From sequence record PQ511151.1: 64,000 nucleotides of DNA, one strand, 5' to 3'. The notes under the pieces were generated by a model that searched no databases, had not been told where the DNA came from, and was given only the letters and a program-made list of their open reading frames with translations. This document shows positions 36,895 through 37,440 of this stretch, one piece after another. A program made the position numbers and the translations under genes. Numbering within the stretch: the first letter of the stretch is position 1; each line of letters starts with the position of its first letter. The DNA is from Escherichia phage NHEP36.

Positions 36895-36931
36895 GTTTAC
36901 AACTAAGTAGGACTATGATACAGTAGTCCTA
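36895..36931 (+). promoter_or_regulatory. Early promoter in palindrome (GTTTAC, 18 nt, TACAGT; arms TAGGACTA/TAGTCCTA)
   Basis: Same cassette family as at 16845, 37404, 57074. Confidence 0.55.
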
Positions 36932-36950
36932 TCTAAAAGAGGATAACATC

Positions 36951-37214
36951 ATGAAATTTAAATTTTTCTACGCAAAACATAAAGTGACAGGTGAGTTTGT
37001 TTCAATGTACAACACAGCAGATGATGAAGGGATGATTTATACCCATTTAGGCCTATCTCATTGGGACTCGGACGTGCCTTATATGTCATCTGAAGCCGAA
37101 ATAACTCGTCTGGTTAATGGACATATGAACGACCATTTTGGTGTTATTCTTTCTAAAGACCTTAAAGAGGTTATCAACAAAGGATATATGGAACTCGCGG
37201 AAGTTGAGATATGA
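36951..37214 (+). CDS. Hypothetical protein
   Basis: 87 aa; RBS AAGAGGA. Confidence 0.55.
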   Translation: MKFKFFYAKHKVTGEFVSMYNTADDEGMIYTHLGLSHWDSDVPYMSSEAEITRLVNGHMNDHFGVILSKDLKEVINKGYMELAEVEI

Positions 37215-37297
37215 GCTCTAAAATGTGGATCGGAATATGGTTGCTTAGTATCCCTATGATTTGTATAATATTTTCAATTGTATTGAGGTACTTATGA
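37211..37297 (+). CDS. Tiny hydrophobic peptide (28 aa)
   Basis: ATGA-coupled to upstream ORF; single TM-like segment. Confidence 0.25.
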   Translation: MSSKMWIGIWLLSIPMICIIFSIVLRYL

Positions 37298-37401
37298 AAA
37301 ATGCACTTATTGTACTAAGAACAATTTGCGATACAGGTTTTTACATCGCATGTTCGTTCACTGGAACATGGTTGGCTTTAACATATTTTAATGTAATTTA
37401 A
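37294..37401 (+). CDS. Tiny hydrophobic peptide (35 aa)
   Basis: ATGA-coupled; RBS GAGGT. Confidence 0.25.
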   Translation: MKNALIVLRTICDTGFYIACSFTGTWLALTYFNVI

Positions 37402-37403
37402 TT

Positions 37404-37440
37404 GTTTACATTAAGGTAGGATTATGGTATAGTAGTCCTA
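37404..37440 (+). promoter_or_regulatory. Early promoter in palindrome (GTTTAC, 18 nt, TATAGT; arms TAGGATTA/TAGTCCTA)
   Basis: Cassette family member. Confidence 0.55.

Follow-up and report, generated by a model that had tools for sequence, protein, structure and literature searches.

We find that two early-promoter cassettes in the denB-ndd interval of Escherichia phage NHEP36 (PQ511151.1) are very probably members of a dispersed family of regulatory elements of the promoter-early stem-loop (PeSL) type, and that these elements act as crossover points. Comparison with a relative, Escherichia phage JM10, supports the conclusion that deletion of the small-gene module between the two cassettes, from one cassette to the other, occurs in nature.

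The host phage is a Mosigvirus, i.e. an RB69/JS09-like T-even phage, and the 2.5 kb around the cassettes is 97–98.7% identical to many Mosigvirus genomes (NHEP11, JS09, HX01, ST0, and RB69), with colinearity over at least 80% of this 2.5-kb region in 152 records. All genes in the region are on the + strand, in the order rIIB, an RB69ORF272c-like ORF, denB, cassette 1, the 87-, 28-, and 35-aa genes, cassette 2, ndd.1, a third promoter, and ndd. The features are listed below by their positions in the window, i.e. the whole stretch of 64,000 nt that was analysed.

35126-36061, + strand: rIIB
36051-36389 (longest ORF), + strand: RB69ORF272c-like ORF
36262-36882, + strand: denB, DNA endonuclease IV (PHROG family phrog_1360, E 2.7e-87, residues 22-205)
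36878-36937, + strand: cassette 1 repeat, ortholog by position of an annotated T4 promoter
36951-37214, + strand: 87-aa gene, RB69ORF270c = PST ORF268 (phrog_2390)
37211-37297, + strand: 28-aa hydrophobic micro-gene, homolog of T4 ndd.6 (phrog_8851), its ATG overlapping the upstream stop (ATGA)
37294-37401, + strand: 35-aa micro-gene, equivalent of T4 ndd.5 by position (phrog_18561), with an ATGA overlap
37387-37446, + strand: cassette 2 repeat
37462-37662, + strand: ndd.1, 66 aa (phrog_2183), downstream of cassette 2
37666-37701, + strand: third early promoter, before ndd
37739-38185, + strand: ndd, nucleoid disruption protein (Pfam PF06591, E 4e-89), the downstream anchor of the variable interval

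Coordinates and translations agree with the ORF sizes (87, 28, 35, and 66 aa) and ATGA couplings given by an earlier, sequence-only reading of this DNA. Because all four of these ORFs match PHROG families, they represent conserved phage genes and not chance ORFs; the 35-aa micro-gene is also annotated in JS09 and HX01, and the equivalent of denB is annotated as DenB in JS09, PST, and T4. The true start of denB is probably near 36325. The longest ORFs of RB69ORF272c and denB have about 128 nt in common, reduced to about 65 nt with a denB start near 36325 (PHROG alignment), and the N-terminal extension of the RB69ORF272c ORF contains the rIIB terminator, a hairpin with a UUCG loop (36067-36082). 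Given this overlap and the position of the terminator, the real starts of both genes probably lie downstream of their longest-ORF starts.

The two cassettes form the single direct-repeat family found, i.e. 60 nt at 36878-36937 and 37387-37446 with 78% identity (47/60), and their spacing of 509 bp agrees with the earlier description of cassettes about 500 bp apart that bracket a mini-gene module. In the 38-nt core (36895-36932 vs 37404-37441) 31 of 38 bases are common, a match that arose by chance in none of 100 dinucleotide-preserving shuffles. Likeness was also gauged against a control set of eleven + strand early promoters with a 17-nt spacer in the window. Outside the cassette family, pairs of promoters agree at a mean of 21.6 of 38 positions and at no more than 28; within the family, whose TAGGRCTA-type members in the window are the four at 16845, 36895, 37404, and 57074, the agreement is 26–32 of 38. 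As the likeness of cassettes 1 and 2 is far above that of other early-promoter pairs, they belong to a real repeat family, but the term "near-identical" used for them earlier was generous for an identity of about 80%. The longest exact run between them is 12 nt in NHEP36 (AGTAGTCCTATC), and 13–14 nt in relatives whose cassette 1 has TATAGT.

A single position accounts for a difference of this kind. At 36921, the third base of the cassette 1 -10, NHEP36 reads TACAGT where JS09, JM10, and the IMG/VR and metagenome copies read TATAGT; with this T-to-C change, the longest stretch identical to cassette 2 is 12 nt and no longer 14 nt, and the cassette 1 promoter should be weaker.

Direct repeats at this spacing had been proposed to delete or duplicate the genes between them. 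We built both predicted recombinant junctions in silico and searched them against 50,697 phage records with an E-value limit of 1e-170, which only a match in a single piece can reach. The deletion junction matches exactly 1 of the 50,697 records, that of Escherichia phage JM10 (PP400777.1), in one piece over 542/542 nt at 95.9% identity. JM10 is a Mosigvirus from pig faeces that was isolated on MG1655, and its gene order is denB, a single cassette, and ndd.1. Specifically, this cassette is chimeric, with the diagnostic bases of cassette 1 on the left (ACTAAG...GGACTATGA) and those of cassette 2 on the right (TGAAACATGAGGAA...ATGGCTAAG), and the crossover lies within the shared ATAGTAGTCCTA, i.e. 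the -10 and the right arm. The 87-, 28-, and 35-aa genes are not found in the full JM10 genome (best blastn match 22 nt, tblastn E >0.3), while ndd.1 is retained at 98.5%. Relocation of the module elsewhere in JM10, by reintegration of a mini-circle, was considered and rejected, as whole-genome blastn and tblastn find nothing; because the module is absent genome-wide, JM10 represents a true deletion.

The module is kept in single copy in 152 Mosigvirus records, so the deletion is seen in 1 of about 153 genomes. Many Tequatrovirus genomes also have the part of the module with the 87-aa and 28-aa genes, about 71% identical in nucleotides and again placed between the orthologous promoters. Presence of the module in these 152 records and in many Tequatrovirus genomes makes it the ancestral state, and JM10 the derived one. 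The duplication or mini-circle junction has no match in the 50,697 phage records, and thus the earlier proposal stands for deletion and finds no counterpart for duplication. Searches of IMG/VR and metagenome contigs revealed no recombinant junction; the handful of Mosigvirus contigs found are all parental, and contigs with the cassette core are too few there for a population estimate. Comparison with relatives does nonetheless reveal variation of the sort that the sequence-only reading would lead one to look for, with JM10 standing without the module. From the product in JM10 alone, homologous recombination and replication slippage are indistinguishable.

A second pair of cassettes reveals an event of the same kind. 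In JM10, two close cassettes (PP400777.1 134043-134394) lie 328 bp apart and bracket a 91-aa gene beside an internal-head-protein gene. The synthetic junction of this 328-bp pair matches phage p000v in one piece over 552/552 nt at 97.3%, and p000v (NC_055781.1 74423-74973) has a single chimeric cassette with the left parent on the left and the right parent on the right, the crossover being inside a 28-nt shared stretch. The difference between p000v and JM10 is an indel of the same kind, i.e. a deletion or an insertion. At the locus of the 91-aa gene, one IMG/VR contig has a third arrangement, with a 151-aa ORF directly 5' of the cassette.

Both cassettes follow the core pattern (G)TTTACA, a 17-nt spacer, and TG-n-TA(C/T)AGT, with 80–90% A+T in the 20 nt 5' of the promoters. 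In cassette 1 the -35 TTTACA (36896-36901) is followed after 17 nt by the extended -10 TGaTACAGT (hexamer 36919-36924), and in cassette 2 the -35 TTTACA (37405-37410) is followed, again after 17 nt, by TGgTATAGT (hexamer 37428-37433). Each is intergenic: cassette 1 lies between the denB stop codon (36880-36882), which is 12 nt 5' of it, and the ATG at 36951, and cassette 2 between the stop of the 35-aa gene (37399-37401) and the ATG at 37462. They are putative sigma-70/T4-early-type promoters, and the earlier reading of the cassettes as promoters is supported by this T-even early pattern and by promoters annotated at the same positions in T4 (X75802). The T4 promoters lie directly after denB and after ndd.5, have -35 GTTTACA and -10 TACTAT, and are 279 bp apart, bracketing ndd.6/ndd.5. 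They resemble the cassettes in position, in the GTTTACA -35, in the 17-nt spacing, and in bracketing homologs of the ndd.6/ndd.5 genes, but they differ in having no inverted repeat that encloses the -10, and the T4 promoter P1 has a 5-bp repeat inside its spacer. Over the core, cassettes 1 and 2 agree with each other at 48/68 positions and with their T4 orthologs by position at 36–39/68, and the A/T-rich part 5' of cassette 1 still resembles T4 P1. These patterns suggest that the cassette core may have been homogenised or spread within the Mosigvirus lineage.

An 8-bp inverted repeat, TAGGAYTA/TAGTCCTA, places the extended -10 in its loop in each cassette, and the cassettes were correctly called palindromic in that inverted repeats enclose the -10 in both. 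Specifically, TAGGACTA (36908-36915) pairs with TAGTCCTA (36924-36931) in cassette 1, and TAGGATTA (37417-37424) pairs with TAGTCCTA (37433-37440) in cassette 2, where one pair is a T.G (U.G) wobble. The RNA stems reach 10–11 bp with G.U pairs in both cassettes, and their predicted folds have -13.2 kcal/mol (z -3.6) for cassette 1, -13.7 kcal/mol (z -5.4) for cassette 2, and -18.7 kcal/mol for the copy at 57074. Among 20 candidate + strand early promoters in the window, 4 have an inverted-repeat score of at least 7 around the -10; none of 1000 spacer shuffles contains four promoters with such a score, and thus the inverted repeat around the -10 is non-random. Overall, the hairpins range from -11 to -19 kcal/mol (z -3.6 to -6.1).

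No arm variant of the TAGGRCTA family loses its sense-strand pairing, since each introduces either a wobble or a compensatory pair, i.e. U.G in all copies of cassette 2, G.U in two JM10 copies, and an A-T to G-C double change in the copy at 57074. Such wobble-keeping variants favour a hairpin of sense-strand RNA (or of single-stranded DNA) over a symmetric protein operator as the probable form of the element. Covariation in the family is only suggestive: in a set of 10 sequences only, 2 pairs have changed on both sides, and 31–34 of 500 shuffles are as good.

Transcription would start, at the usual spacing, at about 36931 and about 37440, i.e. at the last base of each right arm. Because of this start, the cassette's own mRNA would be free of the hairpin, and read-through RNA from upstream would have it. 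In both cassettes the right arm ends 5–6 nt 5' of the Shine-Dalgarno, which is not sequestered. The stem has 3 G-C among its 8 pairs and is followed by TCTAAAAG or TCAAAACA, with no U-tract, and a consensus scan called no + strand intrinsic terminator at the cassette hairpins. A role of the hairpins as intrinsic (Rho-independent) terminators was rejected on these grounds, i.e. for want of a U-tract and of a G+C-rich stem. Hairpins that do resemble terminators, with T-rich tails, are found on either side of the region, at 36067-36082 and 38193-38212.

Members of the cassette family, always in early-gene orientation, number 4 in the window and 7 in JM10. Other early promoters also have inverted repeats around the -10, of unrelated sequence. 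The third promoter of the interval (37666-37701) consists of TGTACA, a 17-nt spacer, and TATAAT, and its -10 is enclosed by the arms TGAGAGCA / TGCTCTCA; further examples are a 13-bp stem at 27690 and, at 28269, GGTCTAT/ATAGACC. The Dhakavirus ortholog of the ndd promoter has the inverted repeat CGAGAATCA/TGGTTCTCG around TATAAT, in a sequence unlike that of Mosigvirus, so that between the two genera the stem is kept and the sequence changed; T4 has a plain stem-loop only at this place, with no annotated promoter.

The example at 27690-27746 (+ strand) consists of an early promoter, GTTTACT-16-TATTAT, within the 13-bp inverted repeat TTCTCCTCTGGTT / AACCAGAGGAGAA, with an RNA fold of -19.4 kcal/mol (z -5.7). 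Its right arm includes the Shine-Dalgarno GAGGAG of a 174-aa gene that starts at 27744. Read-through RNA would hide this ribosome-binding site, and transcripts from the internal promoter would not. In T4 genes e, soc, 49, and I-TevI, a hairpin hides the ribosome-binding site in read-through transcripts, and there is an internal promoter. Cassettes 1 and 2 resemble this design in that the promoter lies within the hairpin, the promoter's own transcripts have no 5' arm, and read-through RNA has the whole hairpin, but the T4 promoters are late ones, and the hairpin of cassettes 1 and 2 excludes the Shine-Dalgarno and ATG. Only the promoter at about 27690 resembles the T4 e/soc/49/I-TevI design in the window, but it is an early promoter.

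PeSLs lie between small ORFs without a known function in the hyperplastic parts of T4-type phage genomes, and each joins a stem-loop to an early promoter of the sigma-70 type and an A/T-rich stretch (PMC2839356, PMC4122927). Their stem-loop is commonest between the -35 and -10 or overlapping the -10 (PMC2839356), with other subclasses in which it overlaps the -35 or lies upstream or downstream (PMC2839356, Fig. 2 legend). Both promoter and terminator activity have been shown in reporters, and in RB49/phi1 a PeSL stem-loop cut downstream reporter expression as strongly as rrnB T1 (PMC2839356). PeSL cassettes contain the end points of indels between RB49 and phi1, and inverse PCR has revealed excised mini-circles (PMC2839356). 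These molecules are present in about 1 in 10^5 virions (PMC2839356), too rarely for assemblies to be expected to capture them. PeSLs were later extended to T4/PST, with a worked example, ORF268/269 vs ndd.4/.5, from the same denB-ndd interval (PMC4122927); ORF268 is the homolog of the 87-aa gene.

By all the defining features that can be tested on sequence, cassettes 1 and 2 are of the PeSL type, in a Mosigvirus form with a TAGGRCTA stem. As in PeSLs, an A/T-rich stretch between two genes is followed by an early promoter of the sigma-70 type with its stem-loop, and then by the Shine-Dalgarno and ATG of a small gene. Overlap of the stem-loop with the -10 is among the two placements most often described for PeSLs, the cassettes cluster in hyperplastic regions, and indels that set JM10 and p000v apart from close relatives have their ends within cassettes. 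They differ in the stem, TAGGRCTA/TAGYCCTA here and G-run/C-run in RB49/phi1, and in the -35, which is of the T-even type (G)TTTACA, unlike that of RB49/phi1 PeSLs. In RB49/phi1, moreover, terminator activity and mini-circles were established by experiment, whereas the Mosigvirus cassettes are known from their sequence. We had considered the architecture unlike that of PeSLs, taking these to have stem-loops 5' of the promoter (PMC4122927 legend), and dropped this objection since a subclass with a stem-loop overlapping the -10 is listed (PMC2839356). A full-text literature search returned no paper that links PeSLs with RB69 or Mosigvirus.

The denB-ndd interval is itself hyperplastic, and its content differs among Mosigvirus, Tequatrovirus, Dhakavirus, Moonvirus, and phage Ursula. 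For example, Moonvirus KM16 has denB, a promoter, and ndd with nothing else between, in phage Ursula a phrog_2390 gene is joined by another small ORF, in Dhakavirus there are three promoters with small ORFs of other kinds, and T4 has ndd.6 to ndd.1. T4 also keeps a remnant of the 87-aa gene, an 8-codon ORF (MKIAEIEL*) with the gene start, the last five codons, and the ATGA overlap with ndd.6; as this T4 deletion lies inside the 87-aa ORF, not all variation of the interval is bounded by cassettes.

The genes carried between the cassettes have no matches in Pfam, PADLOC, or PDB sequences, and a homolog search yields just 8 clusters. The 87-aa protein is modelled with confidence by AlphaFold2 as a small alpha/beta fold (pLDDT 89.5). 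The predicted fold matches only uncharacterised T4-like phage proteins, and no PDB entry matches it at E <= 0.001 (best E 0.35, with TM-scores of about 0.3 or lower). In several database calls the Tequatrovirus homolog has a spurious N-terminal extension of about 32 residues that is the translated promoter cassette (MVSFHLKNFFTKRFTYHKD...), i.e. in those Tequatrovirus phages the promoter region is free of stop codons in one frame and has been mis-annotated as coding.

Our preferred model is as follows. Each cassette would be a unit of about 45–60 nt with an A/T-rich upstream part, a strong early promoter for host sigma-70, an inverted repeat, and a Shine-Dalgarno with its ATG. Early transcription from it would begin at the final base of the right arm, and its own mRNA would therefore not include the hairpin. 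In read-through transcripts the hairpin may attenuate them or stabilise their 3' ends, by analogy with RB49/phi1 PeSLs, where this was partly tested, and such attenuation or 3'-end stabilisation would insulate each mini-operon. The cassettes are at the same time direct repeats of about 80% identity with a 12–14-nt exact core, and T4-type recombination or replication slippage can act on such short homologies, which is why they would serve as crossover points. An exchange between cassettes 1 and 2 would remove the 87/28/35-aa module and place ndd.1 under a chimeric, intact promoter, as in JM10.

Three other explanations deserve weighing. In one of them the hairpin of read-through RNA is no terminator but might serve in RNase processing, in stabilising 3' ends, or as a translational discriminator, with recombination incidental to two close, similar promoters and no selected role as mobile cassettes. 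The sense-strand-specific wobble pairs and the missing U-tract after the stem fit such a role, as does the right arm at 27690, which covers the next gene's Shine-Dalgarno as in T4 e/soc/49, and a deletion in only 1 of about 153 genomes also speaks for this explanation. Yet the right arm of cassettes 1 and 2 stops 5–6 nt short of the Shine-Dalgarno and sequesters nothing, two independent cassette-bounded indels occur in one genus, and the RB49/phi1 stem-loop equals rrnB T1 in a reporter (PMC2839356), and we consider this explanation somewhat unlikely. Quite unlikely, in our view, is that the palindrome is a DNA operator, TAGGRCTA-N8-TAGYCCTA, for a dimeric phage or host protein (a repressor or recombinase), the cassettes being alike because they have a common binding site. 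The palindrome is centred exactly on the -10, in the 8 or more copies of each genome it is the arm sequence, and not just its pairing, that hardly varies, and the loop, TGTTATAG, is conserved too; Arbiol et al. (PMC2839356) have speculated on a specific DNA-binding protein for PeSL stems. An operator is difficult to reconcile with the unrelated repeats that enclose the -10 of other promoters in the window (TGAGAGCA/TGCTCTCA, GGTCTAT/ATAGACC, and the 13-bp TTCTCCTCTGGTT arm), with the repeat of the ndd promoter, whose sequence changes between Mosigvirus and Dhakavirus, and with arm variants that are wobbles, breaking DNA symmetry yet keeping sense-strand RNA pairing; moreover, no candidate binding protein was found.

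A stronger form of the protein-site idea would make TAGGRCTA-TGTTATAG-TAGYCCTA the site of a dedicated phage protein that moves promoter-plus-ORF cassettes or co-regulates these early promoters. The sequence of this core is itself conserved, not its pairing alone, with at least 8 per Mosigvirus genome, but we rate the proposal as very unlikely; if it were true, T-even phages would possess an integron-like system of site-specific excision and insertion, or a means of co-regulation, and the cassette would be more than a passive patch of homology. Finally, the JM10 and p000v junctions might be assembly or laboratory artefacts, so that the cassettes do not recombine naturally. One deposited assembly stands behind each variant, and the few metagenomic contigs have no chimeric junctions. 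However, an assembler would not be expected to lose 509 bp of unique sequence over a repeat of 40 nt with about 80% identity, the two junctions are cleanly chimeric between parental flanks, and JM10 is otherwise colinear with its relatives, with about 96% identity to the window over the junction query. With the same type of event at different pairs in two unrelated isolates, we consider an artefact very improbable.

For the reading that we prefer, i.e. PeSL-type cassettes that act as crossover points, the two natural before-and-after pairs (NHEP36 vs JM10, and JM10 vs p000v) allow crossovers to be read to 14–28 nt, and such events can be found cheaply in sequence databases by taking a synthetic recombinant junction as the query and setting a stringent E-value. 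Isolation of JM10 on MG1655 also means that the 87-aa phrog_2390 gene and the micro-genes of the ndd.6/ndd.5 type are dispensable on E. coli K-12. The cassettes leave the known mechanism unchanged, and they extend the PeSL model of gene shuffling to the RB69/Mosigvirus group, which is widely used in phage therapy and biocontrol.
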